From: Candidatus Saccharimonadota bacterium
GTDB taxonomy: Bacteria; Patescibacteriota; Saccharimonadia; Saccharimonadales; Saccharimonadaceae
Direction: 5' to 3'
Length of the DNA stretch: 32,000 bases
NCBI GenBank assembly: GCA_016700015.1
Contig: CP064995.1
Span: 300,001-332,000 of the forward strand
Part shown: positions 341 to 29,125 of the stretch, piece by piece
Position numbering within the stretch: the first letter of the stretch is position 1
How the letters are laid out: the number at the start of each line of letters is the position of its first letter
Notes under the pieces: generated by a model
Databases searched by the model: none
Told to the model about the DNA's origin: nothing
Seen by the model: only the letters and a program-made list of their open reading frames with translations
Translations under genes and position numbers: made by a program

Positions 341-369
341 ATTTTAATACTTTTTATTTATACTGTCAA
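341..369 (-). promoter_or_regulatory. sigma70-type promoter TTGACA-N17-TAAAAT
   Basis: On the minus strand, TTGACA is the complement of 364..369 and TAAAAT the complement of 341..346, with a 17-nt spacer. It lies about 40 nt upstream of the ATG at 301. Confidence 0.6.
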
Positions 370-5069: not shown

Positions 5070-6191
5070 ATGGAAGATCTCAACATTAAACAACTCACTC
5101 TTGCAGTGCGCACCATTGCCGAAGAAAAAAACTTGCCCGAAGAAACTGTGCTCAGCGTTATTGAGCAGGCGATTGCCGCTGCATGGCGTCGCGACAATGG
5201 CGAACGCGACCAAGAAGTTCGCGCTGAGCTCAATATCAACGACGGTACAGCGAAAGTATTTGTTGCTCGAGAAGTTGTAGAAGCTGTCGGTATCGACGCC
5301 CTCGAAATCAGCCTTGACGATGCAAAAAAGCTGAAGAAGGATGCTGCACTTGGCGATACCGTCGAAGAAATGCATGAAGTGACGCAGTTTGGTCGTGTAG
5401 CCGCACAAACTGCTAAACAGGTGGTACTCCAGCGTCTGCGCGAAGCAGAGCGTGAAGTGGTGCTGGCCGAGTTTGAAGACAAGATCGGCACTGTGGTCAA
5501 TGGTGTTGTGCAGCGTGTTGAACCGCGCGTAGTCCGAGTAGAACTGGGCAAGGCAATTGGTATTTTGCCGCAAAGTGAGCAGATCCAGGGTGAATTCTAC
5601 AGTGTGGGTAGCCGCATGAAAGTGTTTATCAAGGACATCGAGCGCGATAACCGTGGGCCACAGCTTATACTGAGCCGCGGCAATGAAGCGTTTGTTGAGT
5701 ACTTATTCCGCCAAGAAGTACCCGAAATGGATACTGGTGCGGTCGAAATCAAGGGCATTGCCCGTGAGGCTGGTCGCCGTACTAAATTGGCTGTAGCCAG
5801 CACCGTACCCGGTGTCGACCCGGTCGGTACCTTTGTTGGTGGTCATGGGACGCGTGTCAACGCTGTCATGCACGAAATCGGTGAGCAGGAAAAAATTGAC
5901 ATCATTACCTACGACGAAAACATCGATAGTTACATTCGTAACGCTTTGAGCCCTGCCGAAGTGGTGAAGGTCGAGATCGACAAAGAAGCGAAGCGCGCTA
6001 AGGTATTTGTGAGCGAAGACCAGCAAAGTATTGCCATTGGCCGTGGCGGCCAAAATGTACGCCTAGCGGCGCGCCTTACTGGCTACGAACTTGACATCGA
6101 AACAGCTGTCGCCGCTAAGCCTGCCGACAAAAAGCCGAAGAAGAATATTGAAGACGGGTTGTTTGCCGCTATTGAAGAACAGGGAGAATAA
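5070..6191 (+). CDS. nusA: transcription termination/antitermination factor NusA
   Basis: Met50 of track ORF 4923..6191. It has the NusA N-terminus (LTLAVRTIAEEKNLPEE), an S1 domain (GTVVNGVVQRVEPRVVRVELG) and two KH motifs (VGGHGTRV, IGRGGQNVRLAARLTG). Confidence 0.93.
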   Translation: MEDLNIKQLTLAVRTIAEEKNLPEETVLSVIEQAIAAAWRRDNGERDQEVRAELNINDGTAKVFVAREVVEAVGIDALEISLDDAKKLKKDAALGDTVEEMHEVTQFGRVAAQTAKQVVLQRLREAEREVVLAEFEDKIGTVVNGVVQRVEPRVVRVELGKAIGILPQSEQIQGEFYSVGSRMKVFIKDIERDNRGPQLILSRGNEAFVEYLFRQEVPEMDTGAVEIKGIAREAGRRTKLAVASTVPGVDPVGTFVGGHGTRVNAVMHEIGEQEKIDIITYDENIDSYIRNALSPAEVVKVEIDKEAKRAKVFVSEDQQSIAIGRGGQNVRLAARLTGYELDIETAVAAKPADKKPKKNIEDGLFAAIEEQGE

Positions 6192-6205
6192 GTACTAACG
6201 AAGAG

Positions 6206-6251
6206 CGCCCCGCACCACCTGGCTCCCGTAGGAGCTGGTAAGTGCGGGGCG
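6206..6251 (-). terminator. long GC-rich hairpin downstream of the cassette-1 ORF
   Basis: CGCCCCGCAC (6206..6215) pairs with GTGCGGGGCG (6242..6251). An inner GCTCC/GGAGC helix lies between them. The hairpin sits 18 nt after the minus-strand stop, followed by only a weak T-rich tail (CTCTTCGTT). Confidence 0.55.
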
Positions 6252-6268
6252 ATCCCCAGAGCGAGAGG

Positions 6269-6556
6269 TCAGGCGGCGGTGTTGAGTCGCACGTAGACCT
6301 CTGCGCCGATTCCGACGTCGTGGAAGGCGTCGGCCTCCCGGGCGGCCGCGGCGAGTCGCTTCTCCGCCTGCTCGAGCTTGTCGAGCAGGGCGTCGACGAC
6401 CTTGTCGCCGCGCCCGGCGTGGGTGGCCCGGGCGACGGCGCTGGCGGCCGCGTCGACGGCGCGCTGGGCGGTCGCGACGTCGGCCTGGAGCTGGTTCCAC
6501 CGGGTCAGGTTGTTCTTGGCCTTGTCGATGGTCGGCATCGAAACGGGGTACGACAT
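6269..6556 (-). CDS. orphan high-GC protein, 95 aa, Ala-rich and predicted helical (cassette 1)
   Basis: Met31 of track ORF 6269..6646, preceded by AAAGAGG-N6. By my count 90 of 95 codons end in G or C. The other frames give Arg-rich or Gly/Val-rich shadow ORFs. Sample line 6361..6420 is 43/60 G+C, against 29/60 for a nusA line. Confidence 0.7.
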   Translation of the reverse strand: MSYPVSMPTIDKAKNNLTRWNQLQADVATAQRAVDAAASAVARATHAGRGDKVVDALLDKLEQAEKRLAAAAREADAFHDVGIGAEVYVRLNTAA

Positions 6557-6617
6557 TGGGTGCCTCTTTCTCTGGGGTGCATACTGCTCGGCAAGTCGCC
6601 TCGCAGCTTCAGTATTC

Positions 6618-6646
6618 ATTATAGCACAACCACAATAAAATGTCAA
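6618..6646 (-). promoter_or_regulatory. perfect TTGACA-N17-TATAAT promoter, with -35 formed at the IS junction
   Basis: On the minus strand, TTGACA is the complement of 6641..6646 and TATAAT the complement of 6618..6623, with a 17-nt spacer. Bases 6643..6646 of the -35 box belong to the IS terminal repeat. Confidence 0.65.
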
Positions 6647-7641
6647 TAGCTACGTAATGGTTCACACCCTTGGCAACAAAAAGCAGGCCTCTCTACACTA
6701 GATAGCGTCAACTAATCTATGTAAGGAGAGCCTGCTATGAGCTATTCTAGCAGCCCCTATGCACCCCGTGCCAGACGAGACGCCGTCAACCGGGTGCTCC
6801 GCGGGGAGACACGAGTGGCAGTAGCGCGTAGTGTGGGTGTCCACCCTTCCACCATTGGTAAGTGGATGTGCAAACGAACAGCACTGCACTTAGATGGTCG
6901 TGAGTGTATCCCTACACTTCCATCCATTGCCCATACCCACCCTAACCAACTACAACCAGAGGTTGTGGCTGCCATTATTCACGAACGCGAACGGAGCGGA
7001 AGATGCGCTGAGCTCGTCTGGTATGAACTGCGCGACCAAGGTATTGCAGTGAGCCTCTCTAGCGTCAAACGGACCTTACGTCGTCATGGTCTCACACGCA
7101 TTCAAAGCAAATGGAAACGGTACCGCCCACCTGTCCCGCGCCCCGAACCAGACACACCAGGCGCGCTTGTGCAGATGGATACCATCCATTTTATGCGACC
7201 AGATATGACGCGCTTCTACGTATTTACCCTCATCGATCTCTATTCCCGAGCGGTATATGCCGAGTATGCTCCTCGCTGCACGCAGCAAGCGAGTCTTGAG
7301 GTTGTTGCAAGGGCACAAGACTATCTCGGAATACCTTTTGCCATAGTACAGACCGACAACGGCGGTGAGTTTGCGGAAGCATTCCGTGCGCAACTCAGCA
7401 TGTGGGGTATTGTGGTGCGACACACTCGGTTGCAGCGCCCTAACGACAATGCGCACATTGAGCGGTTTAACCGCACAATCCAGGACGAATGCCTTTCGCC
7501 ATTCGTCGATGAACAAACCGTACCAGGCAAAGTAGCTTGGTATCTTATCTACTACAACTGGCACCGAAGACATCTTGGCATACATGGCAAGTTACCCGGG
7601 CAGATGTTGCCATGGCGCTGAACCTAGTACGTAGCTATTGA
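6643..7641 (+). mobile_element. IS481-family-like insertion sequence (999 bp)
   Basis: Perfect 14-bp terminal inverted repeats: TCAATAGCTACGTA at 6643..6656 and TACGTAGCTATTGA at 7628..7641. Further imperfect matching extends inward to GGTTC/GAACC. They bracket a single DDE transposase ORF. Confidence 0.85.
6737..7621 (+). CDS. DDE transposase (integrase-core/rve fold, IS481-like single ORF)
   Basis: AAGGAG SD. N-terminal HTH (VAVARSVGVHPSTIGKW). Catalytic triad contexts are VQMDTIHF, VQTDNGGEF and NAHIERFNRTIQDE. Confidence 0.9.
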   Translation: MSYSSSPYAPRARRDAVNRVLRGETRVAVARSVGVHPSTIGKWMCKRTALHLDGRECIPTLPSIAHTHPNQLQPEVVAAIIHERERSGRCAELVWYELRDQGIAVSLSSVKRTLRRHGLTRIQSKWKRYRPPVPRPEPDTPGALVQMDTIHFMRPDMTRFYVFTLIDLYSRAVYAEYAPRCTQQASLEVVARAQDYLGIPFAIVQTDNGGEFAEAFRAQLSMWGIVVRHTRLQRPNDNAHIERFNRTIQDECLSPFVDEQTVPGKVAWYLIYYNWHRRHLGIHGKLPGQMLPWR

Positions 7642-7703: not shown

Positions 7704-8465
7704 TTACTTAGCGAAGTATTCTTCCCAAAAATCAAGATCAACGTAGTACTGATGCGGATCGGTTTTATTGATATATACCCTTGCCGGAGTGCCTACCTGA
7801 AGCCATTTATAATATGACCAAACTTTATCAGATGAGTACCGATCGAGCATGCCATCTTTTGACACGGTTGGCGCTACATGTATCGTTGTGAATACCGTGC
7901 CTTTGCCCACGTGACCGATTGTCGTGCCAACAACTGTTGCTTCGATCGCAGTACCGTTAGCGATGAGCTGTGAAATAGCGCGCGTACGTAACATGTTTTT
8001 GCGCCACGCAATGAAGCCGCCAATGATAACGCTAACACCAAAGATGAACGAAAAAACTAGTAGCAAAATATATAGCGGAAGAGCGATTTCGGGTGAGTAG
8101 CCTAGCTGTGGATTTGAGGGGTCGTAAAGCACAGTGTGGGATTTACCAATCTCTGCCTCATCGTTTCTCCGGTGTGAAGTGCTGTGCGTGAGTATGGAGT
8201 AGACTATGTCATTAACCTTGTACTCGCAAATGTAGCCACCGACAACCTGGGGGTTATATGCGTATTCAGTGACATGGCAAGTAGCTTGTGGCCACGTAAG
8301 GTGTTGTGGGCGAGGTTCCTGAGAAAAGGTAATCCATAGCAATAGACCTGCACTGACAAGAAACGTCGCTAGCCAAACCGCGCCGAATTGTTTGCGGGGC
8401 ATGACGTAAGGATTGCGTGATAGGTATTTTAGTAAGGTATGCATAACCATAGTAAATCCTAACAC
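7704..8465 (-). CDS. membrane protein, DUF3592-like architecture (two TM segments each followed by a beta-rich module)
   Basis: 253-aa ORF with a GTG start after GGAGG. TM segments are AVWLATFLVSAGLLLWITF and LPLYILLLVFSFIFGVSVIIGGFIAW. The family call rests on architecture only. Confidence 0.7.
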   Translation of the reverse strand: MLGFTMVMHTLLKYLSRNPYVMPRKQFGAVWLATFLVSAGLLLWITFSQEPRPQHLTWPQATCHVTEYAYNPQVVGGYICEYKVNDIVYSILTHSTSHRRNDEAEIGKSHTVLYDPSNPQLGYSPEIALPLYILLLVFSFIFGVSVIIGGFIAWRKNMLRTRAISQLIANGTAIEATVVGTTIGHVGKGTVFTTIHVAPTVSKDGMLDRYSSDKVWSYYKWLQVGTPARVYINKTDPHQYYVDLDFWEEYFAK

Positions 8466-8516: not shown

Positions 8517-8545
8517 TTGACGAGTGCCAACATGCCCTGTATAAT
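8517..8545 (+). promoter_or_regulatory. sigma70-type promoter TTGACG-N17-TATAAT
   Basis: TTGACG at 8517..8522 and TATAAT at 8540..8545. It is followed by a 40-nt leader with a small GGGT/ACCC hairpin and an AGGAGGG SD. Confidence 0.65.
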
Positions 8546-8585: not shown

Positions 8586-11051
8586 ATGCCAGACGATTTT
8601 GCAGATTTTATTTCACATCTTACCGAGAACGCTAAGCTGAGCGTGCAGCACGCTGATGCGATTGCTCGTGGTAATGGCAGTGCGTATATAGGTACAGAAC
8701 ACCTATTGCTTGGATTATTGGCGCAGGGGAGTAGCATGGGCGCAAAAGTATTGGCTGATGCAGGAGTTACGCTGCCGCGCGCTGAGCAGGCTCTAGGGCT
8801 TGAGCCGCAGCAGGTCGTCGTTAGTACGGGTGCGGTAGGGCTAAGTGAGACAGCTCTACTGACACTACGTATGGGGTGGGAAGTCGCGAAAGAGTACAAC
8901 CAAGACTTCTTGGGCACTGAGCATATTCTATATAGTCTGCTTCGACAAAGTAATGCACGCGCCACTACTTTGTTAAGAGAATTAGGAGTGGACGTGGATG
9001 ACGCTATGAGCGAAATTGAGAGCTATCTCGATCGTACGCGCGGCGAACATGGGGATGTTGCAACCGAGCCCAAGCAGCGCACTGTGCGTGGCGGCGCGCT
9101 AACTACATTTGGCATTGACCTAACATCAAAGGCCAGTGCGGGAGAGCTCGACCCGATGATAGGTCGCGCTAAAGAGTTAGAGCGCATGATTACTATTTTG
9201 AGTCGACGTACTAAAAATAACCCAGTATTGATTGGTGAACCTGGCGTCGGAAAAACAGCAATTGTAGAGGGCCTGGCGCAGCGAATCGTGCAAGAGCAGG
9301 TGCCCGATCATTTACTTGACCGTCGTGTGATTATGCTCGATATGGCAGCGATGATCGCCGGAACGAAATATCGTGGTGAGTTTGAAGACAGGCTAAAAAA
9401 AGTTATTAGCGAGATTAAGAAACAAGGTAACATTATCGTATTTATCGATGAGCTCCATTTGCTTGTGGGAGCCGGGGCAGCCGAGGGTAGTATGGACGCC
9501 GCCAATATCCTAAAGCCGGCGCTTGCACGAGGCGAACTGCATATGATCGGCGCTACGACACTTGACGAATATCGTAGGCACATAGAGAAAGATACGGCAT
9601 TAGAGCGTCGTTTCCAAACGATTATCGTTAAGGAACCGACCACGAAAGACACAATTGCTATATTGAAAGGTTTGAAGGTTTACTACGAGAAGCACCATGG
9701 TGTCAGTATGAGTGACGATGTACTCGAAAGTGCTGTCTATATGAGTGATCGCTACATCGCCGATCGGTTTATGCCAGATAAAGCGATTGATGTGATTGAT
9801 GAAGCAGCGGCGAGAGTGCGAGTTCGAGTAGGGCACCGCCCGAGTCGCCAACGTGAGCTCCTGAAAGAACTCAAAGGCCTCAATGAGAGAATGGATGATG
9901 CCGTGGCAAGCGAGGACTACGAGCGAGCAGCGCTCTATAAGCAGCGTGTCAGTCAGATTAATGCCAAGCTAGAGGCTGAGCGAGAAGCGATGGAAAGTAA
10001 GGTGCCAATTGCGCTGACCGAAGATGATATCGCCCATGCAATCGCAATCATGACACACGTGCCGGTCGAGAAGGTGCAAACCAGTGAAGCGCGTTTACTT
10101 AAATCGCTCGAGAAACACCTTGGCAAGTATATTATTGGTCAACAGGAAGCAGTAGAAAGGGTAGCGAAGGCAATTCGTCGTACCAGGAGCGGTATTGCCA
10201 GCCAGAAGCGTCCGATAGGTAGCTTTGTGTTTATGGGACCAACCGGAGTTGGCAAGACTGAGCTCGCGAGAGTGCTTGCACGAGAAGTGTTTGGCAGCGA
10301 CGAGGCACTCATTAAAATCGATATGAGTGAATTTAGCGAACGCCACACCACCAGCCGTTTGGTCGGTGCTCCAGCGGGCTATGTTGGCTACGAAGATGGT
10401 GGTAAGCTTACTGACAAAGTACGTCGTCAGCCTTACAGTGTGGTGTTGTTCGACGAAATTGAAAAAGCTCACCCCGATGTGTTCCAACTACTACTGCAAC
10501 TACTCGAAGACGGTCAACTCACAGACGCAAAAGGCCGGGTGGTGAGTTTTCGCAATACGATCATTATCCTTACCAGTAACCTAGGTGCTGATAAAATGAT
10601 GAGAGAAAGTGCCCTTGGGTTCCAAGCAGATACGTCGAAGAAGCAAGTGAACGACCTACACCAGAGAAACGCTAGCTACGCGCGTGAAGCACTCGACAAA
10701 TTCATGCGACCCGAGCTTATCAATCGCTTTGACGGTATTGTAACCTTCCGTGCTCTGACGCGACAAGAGGTGGGCAAAATATTCGATCTCCTTGTTGGTG
10801 AAATCCGTATGCGCTTAGTGCGCCAAGGGTTGGGGCTCGTAGTAAGGCCACATGCAAAATCCTACCTTATCAACAGGGGCTACAGTGCGAAGTTTGGTGC
10901 TCGCGCGCTGCGTCGTGTTATAGAGGATGAACTAGAGCATCTTATTGCCGAAGGAATCTTAGGCGGAAACTATGAAAAAGGCGCTATACTGGAAGTAAGT
11001 ACGCGGGAAGGGGCACTCTATATTGAACAACGAATCGAAGCAACCACCTAA
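8586..11051 (+). CDS. clpC: ATP-dependent Clp protease ATP-binding subunit ClpC
   Basis: 821 aa with Clp_N repeats ([22 protein letters not shown]), Walker A sites GEPGVGKT and GPTGVGKT, Walker B sites FIDELH and LFDEIEKAH, and a UVR-like linker ([12 protein letters not shown]). Confidence 0.93.
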
Positions 11052-12030
11052 GTCGACCCACCAAGTGCGCCGTGCACTCATACTGTTGGTGGTAACATTG
11101 GCGATTAGTGCCTTTCTTATTCTTTACGGCCAGCGCGGCGTCGATATCGTACTTTCGCGCCTGTATCAGCCATCACCACAGATCGCGGATATTAACGCAC
11201 GGCTTGCTATGACGCACCTCGGCACTGATTTGTTTTACGCTAGTGCACCGAAAATTGAAGATAAAACTCAGTTTAACGCTAGCTGCGAAACCGAGGAAAG
11301 GACAATAGCAATTCTTGGCTGCTATTTCCGACGGCATATTTATTTGTTTGACGTAAAGAATAAAGAATTAGATGGCACGCTCGAAGTGACGGCTGCACAT
11401 GAAATGCTGCACGCGGCGTATGAACGGCTTAATTTCTTCGAACGGACACGAGTTAATAGTTTAATAGAGGCGGAATACGCTACACTGCAAGACAGCCCAT
11501 CGCTGAAGCAAGTGATGGCGTACTATGCAAAATCAGAGCCGGGTGAGGAAATTAACGAACTTCACTCTTTGCTTGGTACGACAGTCGTGCACCTTTCGCC
11601 GGAGCTTGAAGCCTACTATTCACAATACTTTAAAGATCGTGCGAGTGTTGTCGCTCTCAATGCTAAATACAACGCTGTTTTTGACAGCTTGAGGAAAAAG
11701 TCCGATGAGCTGCAAAAACAATTGGTCGCACTGCGTGCTCCGCTCGAATCCGATCTTGACCAGTACGAGTCAGATCGTGAGCAAATAGAACTAGACATAG
11801 CGTCATTCAATGAACGTGCAAAGACAAATGGCTTTCCTTCGCAGTCTAGTTTCACAGTAGCTCGAAACTCGCTCATTATGCGAGTTGAAACTATGAATAC
11901 TCGGCAGGCTGATATTAATCAGAGGGTAAAAGATTTCAATACCATTGTCGAGCAAATAAATGCGCTCGCAGTGCGTGCGAATGAGCTTAGTAGTAGCATT
12001 AATGGTGCCACGACCACGAAGGGGCTATAG
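11023..12030 (+). CDS. membrane-anchored HExxH protein with C-terminal coiled coil (putative metallopeptidase)
   Basis: TTG start overlaps the clpC end by 29 nt; an alternative GTG lies at 11065. It has an N-terminal TM (ALILLVVTLAISAFLILY), the motif TAAHEMLHAAY and a heptad-rich tail. Confidence 0.65.
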   Translation: MNNESKQPPKSTHQVRRALILLVVTLAISAFLILYGQRGVDIVLSRLYQPSPQIADINARLAMTHLGTDLFYASAPKIEDKTQFNASCETEERTIAILGCYFRRHIYLFDVKNKELDGTLEVTAAHEMLHAAYERLNFFERTRVNSLIEAEYATLQDSPSLKQVMAYYAKSEPGEEINELHSLLGTTVVHLSPELEAYYSQYFKDRASVVALNAKYNAVFDSLRKKSDELQKQLVALRAPLESDLDQYESDREQIELDIASFNERAKTNGFPSQSSFTVARNSLIMRVETMNTRQADINQRVKDFNTIVEQINALAVRANELSSSINGATTTKGL

Positions 12031-13382
12031 TGGCGAAAACACGATCCTCATTTGTCTGCCAAAATTGCGGTGCAAGTTACCCAAAATGGGTAGGTAAATG
12101 TGAAAACTGTGGAGAATGGAATTCGCTTGTAGAGCAGGCTGTTCAGTCAACTGGTAACTCTGCGGTGGCCCGCGGTGCTTATAGTGGTAAGGTACTCGCG
12201 GCTCAGTCTATGAAATCAATTCGCGCTGAAGATGAAATTCGACGCATGAGTACAGGCATGGTCGACCTTGATATTGTACTCGGCGGCGGCGTATTACCCG
12301 GCGGAGTAATTCTACTGGCAGGCCAGCCCGGTATCGGTAAAAGCACTCTCCTTATGCAGGTTGCGGGGACGGTTGCGGCCAACTATCCTGTGCTCTATGC
12401 TAGTGGCGAGGAATCAGCGAGTCAGGTAAAATTACGCGCTACTCGACTTGGTGCCGATGTAGATGATGATCTCGCGTTTGTGGCGAGCACTAGTGCTGAT
12501 GACATTGCTGCGACGATACGAAGCGGCAAATACAAGCTGGTTATTATCGATAGTATCCAGACGCTTAGCCTTGACGAAATTACAAGTGCTCCGGGCACTG
12601 TCAGCCAGATTACCAACTCTGCAAACGTTATCATACGCGCGGCCAAGGAAAGTAATGCCGCTGTCGTACTAGTGGGCCATGTTACAAAGGAGGGTAGTAT
12701 CGCCGGGCCAAAGGTACTCGAGCACTTGGTCGATGTGGTACTGCAGTTTGAGGGTGATCGCTATGGTGGCTTTAAAGTAGTGCGTGCTATTAAGAATCGC
12801 TACGGCAGTACTAGTGAGGCCGCAATTTTCGAAATGGTAGATGACGGATTAAGAATTGTCGAGAACCCTTCAGCAGCGTTGCTCGCTGAACGTCATGACA
12901 GTGACGGCTCGGTAGTGCTAGCGACGCTCGAAGGAAACCGACCTATTCTAGTAGAAATTCAAGCACTTGTCAATTCGACGAATTTCGGGTATCCTAAGAG
13001 GACGGCGAGTGGGTTTGATATAAACCGCCTCAATCTACTCATCGCGGTGCTCGAGAAGCGCACCAAACTGAATTTATCTGACAAAGACATCTATATCAAT
13101 GTCGTTGGTGGGTTACGGCTTCAGGACCCGGCGGCTGACCTTGCCATTGCAATGGCTATTGCCAGCGCGGCTGCTGGGCGAAAGCTCGATACTGGGCTGG
13201 TGGTTTTTGGCGAAGTAGGGCTTGGGGGAGAAATTCGTAGCGTCAGCCATGTCGATCGCCGCGTGGCCGAGGCGAAAAAATTGGGCTTTACTAAAGCCCT
13301 CGCACCCGAACAGGGTAAAAATACATTTATCAAACCAGTGAGTGACCTCCGTCATGCACTTATCGACTATCTGAAAAGCTAG
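12030..13382 (+). CDS. radA: DNA repair protein RadA/Sms
   Basis: GTG start overlaps the upstream stop by 1 nt. It has a zinc finger (CQNCGASYPKWVGKCENCGEWNS), Walker A (GQPGIGKST), the KNRFG-type motif (AIKNRYGSTSE) and a Lon-like C-terminal domain. Confidence 0.93.
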   Translation: MAKTRSSFVCQNCGASYPKWVGKCENCGEWNSLVEQAVQSTGNSAVARGAYSGKVLAAQSMKSIRAEDEIRRMSTGMVDLDIVLGGGVLPGGVILLAGQPGIGKSTLLMQVAGTVAANYPVLYASGEESASQVKLRATRLGADVDDDLAFVASTSADDIAATIRSGKYKLVIIDSIQTLSLDEITSAPGTVSQITNSANVIIRAAKESNAAVVLVGHVTKEGSIAGPKVLEHLVDVVLQFEGDRYGGFKVVRAIKNRYGSTSEAAIFEMVDDGLRIVENPSAALLAERHDSDGSVVLATLEGNRPILVEIQALVNSTNFGYPKRTASGFDINRLNLLIAVLEKRTKLNLSDKDIYINVVGGLRLQDPAADLAIAMAIASAAAGRKLDTGLVVFGEVGLGGEIRSVSHVDRRVAEAKKLGFTKALAPEQGKNTFIKPVSDLRHALIDYLKS

Positions 13383-21913: not shown

Positions 21914-21960
21914 AGCCCCCGGTGACCCGGAGGCTGAATGCCTGCGACGGGACGGGGGCT
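21914..21960 (-). terminator. long GC-rich hairpin at the 3' end of the cassette-2 ORF
   Basis: AGCCCCCG (21914..21921) pairs with CGGGGGCT (21953..21960). Inner CCCG/CGGG and GGC/GCC helices lie between them. The hairpin overlaps the stop codon and is followed on the minus strand by GTTTGCTT. Confidence 0.5.
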
Positions 21961-22219
21961 AGTAGGTGCCGACCTTTACGGTCGTTCCGACGTACATGTA
22001 GAAGTCGGAAAAACGGAACGCGATTGTCGTCCCACCCCTGGTCTTGATTTCGAAGACCACGTGGTTGGCGGGGTTCGCGTTTGTGAGCTTGTAGAGTTCA
22101 TTTTCGAACTCGCGGACGACATCTCGCGGGACGGCGAGCGCATGGTCGGTCAGCTGCGCTTCGCGGTACCCGTGAAACTTTACGGTTGCGCCGTTCAGGA
22201 GATGGGTGAACTCGGGCAT
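21959..22219 (-). CDS. orphan GC-elevated protein, 86 aa, beta-rich (cassette 2)
   Basis: Met8 of track ORF 21959..22240, preceded by AAAGGAG-N5. Sample line 22021..22080 is 36/60 G+C and third codon positions are G/C-biased. No recognised motif (MPEFTHLLNGATVKFHGYREAQ...). Confidence 0.65.
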   Translation of the reverse strand: MPEFTHLLNGATVKFHGYREAQLTDHALAVPRDVVREFENELYKLTNANPANHVVFEIKTRGGTTIAFRFSDFYMYVGTTVKVGTY

Positions 22220-22271
22220 GGGTGCTCCTTTAGTGGTCAAGGTGCGTAGTGGTGAAACTATTCTGAATTAT

Positions 22272-22300
22272 ATTATATCAAAATACAGCGTATTTGTCAA
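22272..22300 (-). promoter_or_regulatory. perfect TTGACA-N17-TATAAT promoter
   Basis: On the minus strand, TTGACA is the complement of 22295..22300 and TATAAT the complement of 22272..22277, with a 17-nt spacer. It sits in an AT-rich divergent promoter region. Confidence 0.65.
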
Positions 22301-27093: not shown

Positions 27094-27180
27094 TGGTGCG
27101 GATAAGAGGACTTGAACCTCCACGTACTTGCGTACACTAGCACCTGAAGCTAGCGCGTCTACCAATTCCGCCATATCCGC
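27094..27180 (-). tRNA. tRNA-Leu (anticodon CAG), CCA encoded
   Basis: Manual cloverleaf: acceptor GCGGATA/TATCCGC; anticodon arm CTAGC-TTCAGGT-GCTAG; variable arm TGTACGCAAGTACGT; T arm GGAGG-TTCAAGT-CCTCT; then ACCA. Confidence 0.9.
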
Positions 27181-27227
27181 ATATGTATAACACCTAAAGA
27201 GCGCGTGAATTTTTAGGGCTTGCGGCG

Positions 27228-27358
27228 CTAGCTTCTGAAGCTAGGTCACGTTCCGCGACCCCGCGAGCCAGCCTATCGAGCATAGCTCTCTGGTGACATC
27301 GCCTTGCGAACTGCCGACTGACAGTTCTCACGTCTACCAATTCCGCCATATCCGCATA
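27228..27358 (-). pseudogene. scrambled partial copy of tRNA-Leu(CAG) (5' 25 nt + anticodon-arm-like palindrome, no T arm)
   Basis: 27331..27358 is identical to 27156..27183 (28 nt: tRNA positions 1-25 plus 3 upstream nt). 27228..27244 (CTAGCTTCAGAAGCTAG in tRNA sense) matches the anticodon arm except at two loop bases. About 85 nt of unrelated GC-richer sequence lies between the two pieces. Confidence 0.7.
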
Positions 27359-27518
27359 GATAAAGGACACTACTTAACGCGATATTCCTACGCATTATAC
27401 AACGCGCAGCGCGTCTACGACTATTTACGTTTCGCGCAGCCGTCATAGCTGCATACCAAACTATCATAGCAAATACCAGAGGTGGTGGCAAGAATAGCAA
27501 AAAACTTACACAAACATA

Positions 27519-27547
27519 TTGACAAAAAACACAGCTTGTGCTATAAT
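27519..27547 (+). promoter_or_regulatory. perfect TTGACA-N17-TATAAT promoter (TGc-extended)
   Basis: TTGACA at 27519..27524 and TATAAT at 27542..27547, with a 17-nt spacer. It shares the 15-mer TTGTGCTATAATGAA with the cassette-1 promoter. Confidence 0.7.
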
Positions 27548-27652
27548 GAAATTATGCAGTCAGGAGTGGGGCACCCGCCCCGCCGAAGACCGCACCTGAA
27601 TAATCCATCGCTACACAACCCGCCCCCCCGGTGGGGCAGAGAGAGGTTCATC

Positions 27653-28318
27653 ATGAACCGTACCGCCAACTTCGTCGGGCTCAACAAGGCCGCCAAGGAC
27701 GCCGCCATCAAGGAGGCCGTCGCCAAGGCCGAGGCCGGCTTCGCCGGCCGTCTGGCCTTCGAGGCCAGCACCAGGGCCAACCGCGCCCTCGTCGCCGACC
27801 AGGCCAAGCGGTCGTCCGCGCTGCGGACGATCCACGCCGGCCCGGCCCGGGCGCTGGTCGAGAAGGCCCTGGCGTTCTACGCCGAGGCGCCGCTGGCCGA
27901 ACGTGGTGAGGTCTCGACGACCATCGTCGTGACCGACCCGGTGACGCGCAAGCGTCACGCCGTCCCGGTGCAGCTCCCCCAGCTCATCACCGTCGACCCA
28001 CGCGAGTGGGCCCGCATGGAGGCGCTCGCTGCCCTCCAGGGGACGCCCGGCCTGGACGCCAAGGCGGTCGATTTCGCGCGCGGGCGGTTCGCCCGGGCGC
28101 TCGACCGCGGTGTCGAGCGGCTTGCGCTGCTCAACGGCGGCGTCGAGGTCCCCGACAAGGACCCGCTGCCCGAGCGCAAGCCGAAGGCCCAGGATGCCGC
28201 GCCGGTCGACAAGCCGGCCGAGCCCGCGAGCGACAAGGACTTCGACGCCAAGGTGGCGAAGTTCCTGAAGGAATCTCCGCAGCCGCGGAGCAAGCGGGCA
28301 GCCGCCCGCGCCTCCTGA
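27653..28318 (+). CDS. orphan high-GC protein, 221 aa, Ala-rich with Lys/Pro/Asp-rich tail (cassette 3)
   Basis: Met58 of track ORF 27482..28318, preceded by GAGAGG-N6. From this codon onward almost every codon ends in G/C. Sample line 27721..27780 is 45/60 G+C. An in-frame ATG at 27554 lies 6 nt after the -10 box and is an alternative leaderless start. Confidence 0.75.
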   Translation: MNRTANFVGLNKAAKDAAIKEAVAKAEAGFAGRLAFEASTRANRALVADQAKRSSALRTIHAGPARALVEKALAFYAEAPLAERGEVSTTIVVTDPVTRKRHAVPVQLPQLITVDPREWARMEALAALQGTPGLDAKAVDFARGRFARALDRGVERLALLNGGVEVPDKDPLPERKPKAQDAAPVDKPAEPASDKDFDAKVAKFLKESPQPRSKRAAARAS

Positions 28319-28325
28319 TCCCTCC

Positions 28326-28439
28326 TCTCACCTGAGCCCTTCGGGGCAAAGGTGAGATACAAGTAGCGGTGGAATCCCGGGGCGGCGACGAGTTAGTATG
28401 AGGTACCCAGTCCTCAGCAAACACCGTCGTCGCCCTGGG
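28326..28439 (+). other. two stable GC-rich hairpins in the cassette-3 3' region (possible structured RNA or imported terminators)
   Basis: Hairpin 1 (28326..28357): TCTCACCT/AGGTGAGA enclosing GCCC-TTCG-GGGC. Hairpin 2: a 15-bp stem, CCCGGGGCGGCGACG (28376..28390) with CGTCGTCGCCCTGGG (28425..28439), two G-U pairs, and an apical TGAGG/CCTCA helix. Confidence 0.5.
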
Positions 28440-28462
28440 TAACACCCATCTTCCCGACAGTT

Positions 28463-28485
28463 CACCCCAGCAAGGGGTGTTTTTA
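28463..28485 (+). terminator. rho-independent terminator
   Basis: CACCCC-AGCAA-GGGGTG followed by TTTTTATTT. Confidence 0.75.
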
Positions 28486-28507
28486 TTTGCTATAATAGCC
28501 TATACCA

Positions 28508-29125
28508 ATGGCACACTTTTACCTAGTACGGCACGCTGAATCGGTTGCCAACACGCACCCCGAACGTGTGGGAGGTCGCTCGAATCACTCGCCACTAACC
28601 GAGCGCGGCAAAGCGCAGGCCAGGCAGCTCGGTAAATTTGTGCGCGAATACGACATTCAGTACGACAGAGTACTTAGTTCACCAGCAAAACGGACGCTTG
28701 CAACCGCAAAGTATGCCTTCAACCGCACGGGACGCGACATTATTGTGCTTAACAAACTACAAGAAATATCACAAGGTATCGCCGAAGGCATGCCGCGAGT
28801 TGAAGTCTACACCCCTGAGGTACTAGCAATGATCGAGAAAAAGGGGCGCGACTTTGCTATGCCAGGCGGCGAATCGACCCGACAAGTGGGAGCGCGTATG
28901 CTGAAGTGTTTGTCGCGGGTTGCCGACTGGGCGAGTGACGAAGTGCCGCATATGGTAGTGACCCACGGTACGGCAATCAAAAGCTTGGTGGCCGAGCTCG
29001 AGGACCGCTCGCAGCAGTGGATATATGCGGCTCCCATGCCAAATGCTTCGCTGACACACGTGGAAATACGCGGACTAGAGGGCGTAGTACATGACTACGC
29101 ACGGGACACGCAGCGCGATGACTGA
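28508..29125 (+). CDS. histidine phosphatase family protein (phosphoglycerate mutase-like)
   Basis: N-terminal catalytic motif (YLVRHAESVAN) and a later VVTHG segment. TGcTATAAT at 28488..28496 lies 11 nt upstream of the ATG and there is no SD. Confidence 0.85.
   Translation: MAHFYLVRHAESVANTHPERVGGRSNHSPLTERGKAQARQLGKFVREYDIQYDRVLSSPAKRTLATAKYAFNRTGRDIIVLNKLQEISQGIAEGMPRVEVYTPEVLAMIEKKGRDFAMPGGESTRQVGARMLKCLSRVADWASDEVPHMVVTHGTAIKSLVAELEDRSQQWIYAAPMPNASLTHVEIRGLEGVVHDYARDTQRDD

Follow-up and report, generated by a model that had tools for sequence, protein, structure and literature searches.

The spacer between nusA and clpC in a Candidatus Saccharimonadota genome (assembly GCA_016700015.1, contig CP064995.1) carries a small GC-rich unit, which we characterised within a stretch of 32,000 nt (positions 300,001 to 332,000 of the contig; hereafter the window, numbered from its first nucleotide). 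The unit lies on the minus strand, just beyond the nusA stop codon, and contains a single open reading frame (ORF) of 95 codons flanked by its own predicted expression signals. Its features, in the order of transcription, are given below; related loci are designated L001, L003 and so on.

6618..6646, minus strand: predicted sigma-70 promoter, TTGACA (6641-6646), 17-nt spacer and TGC-TATAAT (6618-6626), matching the consensus at 12/12 positions and carrying the TG extension
6557..6611, minus strand: 5' untranslated region (UTR) of ~55 nt with a small conserved GGC-N5-GCC hairpin; the start is placed, by prediction, ~7 nt past the -10 hexamer, and the lineages are ~85% identical
6563..6569, minus strand: Shine-Dalgarno (SD) sequence AAAGAGG, 6 nt 5' of the ATG, read directly from the sequence
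6269..6556, minus strand: coding sequence (CDS) of an orphan protein of 95 amino acids (aa); GC content at third codon positions (GC3) 0.94, AlphaFold2 predicted local distance difference test (pLDDT) score 87.6, three allele lineages, invariant hydrophobic core
6203..6254, minus strand: predicted GC-rich hairpin terminator with its core stem at 6206-6251, called from its fold energy and from the stem kept in L001; convergent with nusA

The composition of this unit departs sharply from that of its surroundings. The region 6201-6560 has a GC content of ~71% (0.715), compared to 0.504 for the whole window, and the values along the profile are 0.44 at 6151-6200, 0.70 at 6201-6250, a maximum of 0.88 at 6426-6475 and 0.36 at 6601-6650. 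The edges are abrupt, with the nusA stop (6191) on one side and the 5' UTR on the other, and UTR and terminator are GC-rich like the CDS. An initial annotation, made from the sequence alone, had pointed to this GC jump and had counted 90 of 95 codons ending in G or C; our profile and recount gave the same result, and the ORF translates into the 95-aa protein quoted there. GC1/GC2/GC3 of the ORF are 0.73/0.48/0.94, whereas GC3 in nine native genes of the window is 0.47-0.58. This periodicity is that of a gene from a genome of ~70% GC, and it is not seen in the other five frames. Note that nearly all six frames are open in the GC-rich stretch, and that the long shadow ORF of the plus strand is broken in one relative. 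The minus-strand frame is supported by the GC3 periodicity, the SD sequence with its ATG, an in-frame 6-nt indel and the conserved hydrophobic core. In agreement with the initial annotation, we consider the stretch compositionally foreign, with the codon usage and composition of a horizontally acquired gene, and 6269..6556 the coding frame. An identical protein is annotated as IPM09_01695 in an NCBI metagenome-assembled genome.

The predicted promoter had been overlooked in the initial annotation. The 32 kb hold just three perfect matches, where 0 are expected; this is one of them, and all 29 of its 29 nt are the same in the three lineages. Promoters matching at 11/12 positions also lie 5' of native genes, clpC for example, which indicates that the style of this promoter is native. 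The SD sequence was confirmed as proposed before, and the window and L001 share the same 20-nt region around it. The hairpin at 6206-6251 also exists as described, with a stem that is longer than the 10 bp reported: it has 19 pairs (10 + 3 + 6). On the minus strand its dG is -43.7 kcal/mol, with a z of -5.4 relative to shuffled sequences; for the plus strand the values are -36.8 kcal/mol and -4.6. It is followed on the minus strand by a weak U-tract, CUCUUCGUU. In L001 the stem is kept through a compensatory G:C to A:U change, and the hairpin is not present in L013 and L014, two relatives without the gene; since these relatives lack it, the hairpin belongs to the insert. As its foot lies 11 nt past the nusA stop codon and the two genes are convergent, it probably ends the nusA transcript as well. 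The whole transcript of ~420 nt folds better than shuffled sequences (z -5.0), about half of the excess energy coming from the terminator alone; the 5' UTR folds no better than its shuffles (z -1.2), and the Rfam covariance models gave nothing at gathering thresholds and two chance-level matches at E up to 10. Promoter, SD sequence and terminator are under constraint, the promoter being unchanged at 29/29 positions while the synonymous divergence of nusA reaches 0.35 per site.

Next, we looked at the distribution of the unit. It occupies the same place on ten independent contigs, taken from assemblies of NCBI, Logan, ENA and JGI (several assemblers and at least 8 samples, SRR8893621, ERZ25038134 and JGI 3300055001 among them), and falls into three allele lineages with 100, 89 and 77% aa identity. 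The exact protein is found beside nusA on six contigs, the 89% allele on two and the 77% allele on two. The identical nusA junctions on the 10 independent contigs show that the unit is not an assembly artefact. All copies have a GC3 of 0.91-0.96 inside loci of 51-52% GC, so the relatives do not carry the gene at native GC, which the initial annotation had named as an outcome that would count against its claim. The distribution is patchy: the unit is absent from the nusA loci of 80/80 GTDB species and is present only in the three lineages. Among these the CDS is 83-96% identical, and the lone indel is 6 nt long, in frame and confined to one allele. Upstream of the -35 hexamer the lineages are unrelated, each with a different neighbour.

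The encoded protein (10.1 kDa, pI 6.7) is rich in Ala (23/95, 24%), lacks Cys, and has neither a signal peptide nor a transmembrane segment; none of its hydrophobic stretches exceeds five residues. AlphaFold2, run on the three alleles, predicts a helical hairpin (pLDDT 87.6) with helices at residues 10-46, 51-77 and 79-94 and the turn HAGRGD after the first of them. The turn (HAGRGDKVV) and an ADAFHD motif are invariant in all alleles. This supports the initial description of a two-helix hairpin around HAGRGD that has no WxG motif and cannot be placed in a family. A word-indexed search of 5.8 billion clusters matched only the Saccharibacteria copies themselves, as did a full HMMER profile search of 1.84 billion representatives, save for a repetitive coiled-coil protein of 1454 aa that we judged spurious. 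No significant match was obtained in Pfam, PHROGs or NCBIfam, no allele matched the PADLOC defence-system models, and tblastn against phages and plasmids and against IMG/VR found no homologue. Foldseek searches of PDB and BFVD returned nothing significant: the matches all had E above 0.09 and were generic hairpins, such as small actinophage proteins, designed hairpins, AcrA and the arm of seryl-tRNA synthetase. The sole sequence match in PDB was the mycobacterial coiled-coil zinc-ribbon protein MSMEG_4306 (5y05), over a 53-residue Ala-rich coiled coil (E = 0.009). MSMEG_4306 has 262 aa and a zinc ribbon, unlike the 95-aa protein, and we rejected homology in favour of compositional similarity over a biased coiled coil.

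The comparison of the alleles indicated what is kept in this protein. Large hydrophobic positions changed class in 0/20 cases, with three conservative swaps, whereas 21/67 of the other positions vary (Fisher p = 0.002). This pattern is that of a folded protein with a fixed core and a rapidly changing surface. The synonymous rate (dS) of the ORF is 0.11 and 0.24 in two genome pairs, for which nusA gives 0.13 and 0.47. A dS that does not exceed that of nusA is compatible with a single acquisition before the lineages split, followed by inheritance. Moreover, 8/9 polarised changes on the branch of the window go from GC to AT, as predicted for decay in a 50% GC genome.

The unit sits in a spacer whose content differs between relatives. 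The neighbouring features in the window are:

5070..6191, plus strand: nusA, 373 aa, the conserved left flank (Pfam NusA_N/S1/KH; the product matches the genes called in relatives)
6647..6652, no strand: target-site duplication TAGCTA, left copy, recognised against the empty site in L003
6653..7631, plus strand: insertion sequence (IS) of 979 bp with a DDE (rve) transposase at 6737-7621 (Pfam rve/rve_3/HTH) and terminal inverted repeats
7632..7637, no strand: target-site duplication TAGCTA, right copy, recognised by the same comparison
7704..8465, minus strand: DUF3592-like membrane protein (Pfam PF12158; tblastn map)
8586..11051, plus strand: clpC-type AAA+ chaperone, the ancestral right neighbour of nusA, with its own 11/12 promoter at 8517-8545

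The real start of nusA is at 5070. Retrieval of the nusA locus from 80 species-level Saccharimonadia genomes showed nusA together with clpC in 74/80, arranged as nusA, clpC, a 335-aa ORF (orfX) and radA. The nusA-clpC gap has a median of 163 bp (~139 bp in the oral Nanosynbacter group). It does not exceed 200 bp in 41 genomes, while 22 have a gap of 200-1000 bp and the remaining 11 one longer than 1 kb. The initial annotation had expected infB after nusA. No infB was found in the 32-kb window, and in this class it is clpC that comes next (74 species), so infB is not expected there. Relative to the ancestral order the unit is an insertion, and a broken nusA-infB synteny is not supported.

The cassette and the IS that the initial annotation had placed together after nusA are both present, as the result of two separate events. 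L003 has the unit together with an intact empty IS site, TGTCAATAGCTATTG, and the IS is absent from both L003 and L001. The empty site and the IS's own TAGCTA duplication show that the IS is a later, separate insertion, and rule it out as carrier of the unit. Its terminal inverted repeats are imperfect, ~26 bp long (CGTAATGGTTCA...), and it landed 3 bp upstream of the -35 hexamer of the unit. In L008 (1-2940), the IS and the 95-aa gene are found with ORFs of 359 aa and 94 aa in place of the DUF3592 gene beyond the IS, which suggests either a multi-copy IS with assemblies switching between copies or a real rearrangement.

The nusA-clpC spacer is a recurrent insertion site, with lineage-specific ORFs that differ by species. 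The DUF3592-like gene is an older accessory gene of this gap, also found in L003 and L011 and absent in L001. Among close relatives, different native-GC ORFs occupy the spacer in L014 (7215-7640, minus strand, 169 aa) and L011 (7184-7666, plus strand, 160 aa); the former has its own TTGACA-N17-TATAAA promoter and terminator and is convergent with nusA, like the 95-codon unit. In UBA1944 (L012 7705-9723, minus strand) the spacer holds a 672-aa SPFH/flotillin-like membrane protein with a GC content of 0.65 and a GC3 of 0.90. Its homologues are 57-99% identical in other Patescibacteria; beyond these, the nearest named ones are those of Acidimicrobiales (Dermatobacter, Iamia, Microthrixaceae), with 54-58% identity, and it is likely a transfer from Actinomycetota into the nusA-clpC spacer. 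Finally, the L001 segment 10352-11384, between the terminator of the unit and the real nusA stop, contains a decayed copy of the nusA 3' end of ~35 nt (27/34 identical), a CT-rich low-complexity stretch, and a gene for a Y1 (IS200/IS605- or RAYT-like) transposase with three flanking TCTCAAGGGTNNNACCCTTGAGAT hairpins (REP-like). This Y1 element differs from the IS of the window and sits on the opposite side of the unit.

Taken together, we propose, with a probability of about 0.62, that the unit is a horizontally acquired, self-contained, moron-like accessory gene from a high-GC source, most plausibly the actinobacterial host of the epibiont or a phage of that host. In this scenario, ~360 bp from a genome of ~70% GC would have entered the nusA-clpC spacer, ancestrally ~140 bp, in an ancestral member of a narrow clade within Saccharimonadia. 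The incoming stretch would comprise the SD region, the 95-codon ORF and the hairpin terminator, and the promoter would be native in style with a perfect consensus. RNA polymerase with the housekeeping sigma factor would initiate ~7 nt past TATAAT (6618-6623), the resulting mRNA of ~420 nt would be translated via AAAGAGG from the ATG at 6556, and transcription would end at the hairpin 6254-6203, which would insulate the convergent nusA too. The product is predicted to be a soluble 10-kDa antiparallel helical hairpin. Small modulators encoded by mobile elements bind macromolecules in conflicts with phages or hosts. Since the buried hydrophobic positions are fixed and the surface changes quickly, we tentatively suggest that this protein, too, might bind another macromolecule and act as a modulator, a role that we hold to be possible and far from assured.

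An actinobacterial origin is plausible on the grounds of composition and analogy, which are what it rests on since the searches gave no donor homologue. Two observations make such a donor plausible: the SPFH gene of UBA1944 in the same spacer, and the reported transfer of DNA from Actinomycetota to Saccharimonadia in wastewater plants, where a Saccharimonas-Tetrasphaera_A pair was named (bioRxiv 10.64898/2026.09.16.751625). In addition, Saccharimonadia parasitise Actinobacteria such as Gordonia (PMC11880426). The capture of actinobacterial-style DNA by Saccharimonadia is an event of a kind already documented, and the unit is not a new system.

Several results weigh against this interpretation. 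The intact ORF had to be dropped as coding evidence, open frames being expected by chance at ~72% GC. No donor lineage is identifiable: the clusters, the profile search, the phage and plasmid collections and IMG/VR contained no homologue beyond the Saccharibacteria contigs. The dN/dS (ratio of nonsynonymous to synonymous rates) of the ORF is 0.7-1.1, compared to 0.06 for nusA, and substitutions are spread nearly evenly over the codon positions (10/9/14), a pattern that is close to neutral. Moreover, the differences between the alleles are of an unusual kind. Between the window (6269-6556) and L001 (10001-10288), C<>G changes make up 16/46 differences (35%), with a transition/transversion ratio (ti/tv) of 0.64; in nusA of the same pair they are 4/114 (4%), with a ti/tv of 2.2 (p = 5e-7 for the difference). 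This spectrum is not predicted by simple vertical descent in a 50% GC genome. It is compatible with divergence inside a high-GC genome or with selection keeping G/C, and base composition alone cannot give it. The flanks are also discordant. Compared with L001 over 5070-6191 and 8586-13382 of the window, nusA shows 90% nucleotide identity and synonymous differences per site (pS) of 0.35, clpC 76% and a pS of 0.78 (saturated), and radA ~73%. This suggests a possible recombination breakpoint in or near the nusA-clpC spacer, and such flanks may leave room for exchange between lineages. In L003, a 65-nt patch over the SD sequence and the first 14 codons is 63% identical to the window, and the remaining CDS is 95.6% identical. 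The C<>G spectrum, this patch, the unequal flanks and the nusA relic of L001 together give a hint that alleles were exchanged or imported repeatedly.

The other two perfect promoters of the window also lie 5' of small atypical ORFs with terminators, which we named units 2 and 3, the 95-codon unit being unit 1:

27519-28480, plus strand: unit 2, GC ~0.72, with a predicted promoter at 27519-27547, SD GAGAGG and an ORF at 27653-28318
21920-22300, minus strand: unit 3, with a predicted promoter at 22272-22300, SD AAAGGAG, an ORF at 21959-22219 and a terminator near 21920-21945

The ORF of unit 2 encodes an orphan protein of 221 aa (GC3 0.93). It is preceded by a GC-rich 5' UTR of ~100 nt and followed by a 3' UTR of ~170 nt with three hairpins, the last of which is a predicted terminator with a U-tract; a tRNA gene lies nearby (27097-27180, minus strand). 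When L091 (2560-3860) was compared with the window (27180-28520), the promoter, the UTRs, the first 5 and the last 50 codons were 97-99% identical, and the central 135-160 codons were unrelated, both cores having a GC3 of 0.94, in genomes that are otherwise almost identical. Between its conserved ends, the core of unit 2 has been exchanged. The conserved GC-rich ends of the units include GCACCCCAGAGAAAGAGGCAC, GGAGCCAGGTGGTGCGGGGCGCTC and the last 150 nt of unit 2. Unit 3 encodes 86 aa with no family match, has a GC content of 0.57 and a GC3 of 0.78, and may have been acquired earlier and partly ameliorated since. A divergent ORF of 314 aa (22206..) is annotated with a GTG start that overlaps unit 3; it probably begins further downstream.

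No similarity was found by BLASTP between the proteins of units 1 and 2. We also considered a mobile promoter module shared by these two units, both of which have TTGTGCTATAATGAA, and rejected it: a broad metagenome scan gave at least 120 promoters that are unrelated, come from many phyla, are not followed by a jump in GC and bear no likeness to the units. As these matches are unrelated promoters from so many phyla, the shared TTGTGCTATAAT is merely the common TRTGn extended -10 motif. Automatic, uncurated calls placed small ORFs with a GC3 of 0.81-0.89 directly behind AT-rich 11/12 promoters in further species of Saccharimonadia, namely in L039 (813-1238), L041 (525-1004) and L053 (1152-1529). 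In addition, an 11/12 promoter at 341-369 (minus strand) points to the left edge of the window, whose first 300 bp have a GC content of 0.57; this region may be another small unit cut by the window end.

The main rival to a single acquisition is that the site acts as a landing pad that is refreshed repeatedly, alleles being imported or overwritten from a high-GC pool (host, phage or other strains) by natural transformation and recombination through the conserved ends. We consider this unlikely. In its favour, the allele spectrum (35% C<>G and ti/tv 0.64, against 4% and 2.2 in nusA) is that of divergence in a high-GC genome, the 65-nt patch of L003 lies beside an almost unchanged CDS remainder, the unit 2 core (~135-160 codons) is unrelated between very close genomes with near-identical ends, and L001 carries its decayed nusA relic attached to the unit. 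However, no member of such a pool was found beyond Saccharibacteria contigs, not even for the conserved 50-residue tail of unit 2, which should be easily detectable. The numbers are also small, unit 1 being known from three alleles and unit 2 from two, and selection for G/C could mimic the spectrum.

A second possibility is that the unit is a transcribed relic, foreign coding DNA behind a strong promoter whose ORF has no function of its own. A dN/dS that at 95 codons is indistinguishable from 1, the even spread of substitutions over codon positions, the chance openness of frames at 72% GC and the lack of homologues would all fit. What speaks against it is that the hydrophobic core has stayed intact although a third of the remaining positions are variable (p = 0.002), that promoter, SD sequence and terminator are conserved well past the neutral expectation, that the indel is in frame, and that the HAGRGDKVV turn and the ADAFHD motif are invariant. 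We therefore regard a relic as rather improbable.

A more speculative idea, for which we see little probability, is that such sites are "expression sockets", in which a perfect native promoter and conserved 5' and 3' ends, the latter with a terminator, stay in place and high-GC coding DNA of the actinobacterial host pool is repeatedly swapped between these ends by natural transformation. Unit 1 would then be one socket and unit 2 (27519-28480) a second, an assignment that is just as doubtful. If true, an epibiotic bacterium of the candidate phyla radiation would gain rapidly renewable, host-style small proteins with which to manipulate or evade its host or the phages of the host.

The functional product could also be the GC-rich RNA of ~420 nt, structured or antisense, and not the protein. 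The very strong (predicted) and conserved promoter, the fold of the transcript (z -5.0) and the weak constraint on the protein point in this direction. However, the terminator alone accounts for about half of the excess folding energy, no Rfam model matched at E up to 10 beyond the two chance-level cases, and the 3-nt GC periodicity, the conserved SD sequence and ATG and the hydrophobic-core pattern point to translation, so that we think an RNA function very unlikely.

Already disfavoured, and hardly credible to us, is the reading of the protein as a divergent WXG100/ESAT-6-like substrate of type VII secretion from an actinobacterial host. Such a reading is consistent with the length of ~95 aa, with the helix-turn-helix hairpin and with a high-GC origin. 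What the two have in common, a size of ~100 aa and an antiparallel two-helix hairpin (predicted here), is at the level of a generic fold that the seryl-tRNA synthetase arm, AcrA hairpins and designed hairpins also show. Against it, the turn is HAGRGD in all alleles, with no W-x-G; Pfam WXG100 (PF06013) gave no match at E up to 0.1; no ESX-type protein was among the Foldseek PDB matches (all with E above 0.1); and neither the 32-kb window nor the 20-kb related loci contain a paired WXG or type VII secretion gene.

Finally, metagenome-assembled genomes can hold chimeras and the protein is Ala-rich, so the high GC could in principle be an artefact (chimeric assembly or binning contamination) or that of a native gene raised by its amino-acid content or by biased gene conversion, but this is refuted for practical purposes by the same nusA junctions on 10 contigs, which come from 8 or more samples and were built with several assemblers, by a GC3, independent of amino-acid content, of 0.94 against ~0.5 in the neighbours, and by the sharp edges and GC-rich UTR and terminator.

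Saccharibacteria have tiny genomes and live as obligate epibionts on Actinobacteria, and for this reason foreign DNA that they retain is likely to matter for the partnership. Taken alone, the unit is an orphan gene, in a class for which actinobacterial transfer has already been reported; the odd substitution spectrum and the core swap of unit 2 add to its interest. A moron-like acquisition, as favoured here, would mean that a foreign ORF of very small size can become fixed under a consensus promoter of native type in a housekeeping spacer, and that it persisted long enough to split into alleles with a fast-evolving surface. The three units in 32 kb are concrete, clonable candidates for host-interaction or conflict proteins, of which, to our knowledge, almost none are known in Saccharibacteria. 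They also provide a search image for more units, namely a GC3 spike directly behind a consensus promoter.

How does the unit compare with known systems? Like integron gene cassettes, it is a small unit with a single ORF, and it varies from one close relative to the next. Unlike them, it has its own promoter and terminator hairpin. No IntI integrase was found at the locus, nor was an attC site seen, although no model of attC was applied. The ORF, which in an integron cassette is promoterless, has its own perfect promoter (predicted), and the only recombinase nearby is a DDE (rve) transposase in an IS flanked by TAGCTA. The word cassette, used in the initial annotation, thus does not apply in the integron sense.

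The source genome probably comes from the same type of habitat (wastewater) as the transfers into Saccharimonadia discussed above. These resemble our case in the recipient class and in the actinobacterial style of the foreign DNA (bioRxiv 10.64898/2026.09.16.751625). They differ in having >99% nucleotide identity to an identified donor, several genes, recombinases and a location beside tRNA genes, whereas the 95-codon unit is one ORF with no donor match and no recombinase of its own, and is old enough to have three alleles.

The unit also resembles phage morons. These are independent promoter-gene-terminator units of deviant composition located between two prophage genes, reportedly described by Hendrix and colleagues. 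No phage genes were found near the unit, whose neighbours are nusA, clpC, radA, queA and tgt, and PHROGs gave nothing significant; unlike a moron in its prophage, it occupies a spacer between housekeeping genes on a bacterial chromosome. As occurs with morons, a single small ORF of deviant composition stands between conserved genes, is absent from close relatives and is accessory. It has a strong promoter of its own (predicted here; 12/12 with the TG extension and 29/29 across the three lineages) and a terminator of its own, with a z of -5.4, a compensatory change and a weak U-tract, which is missing where the unit is missing.

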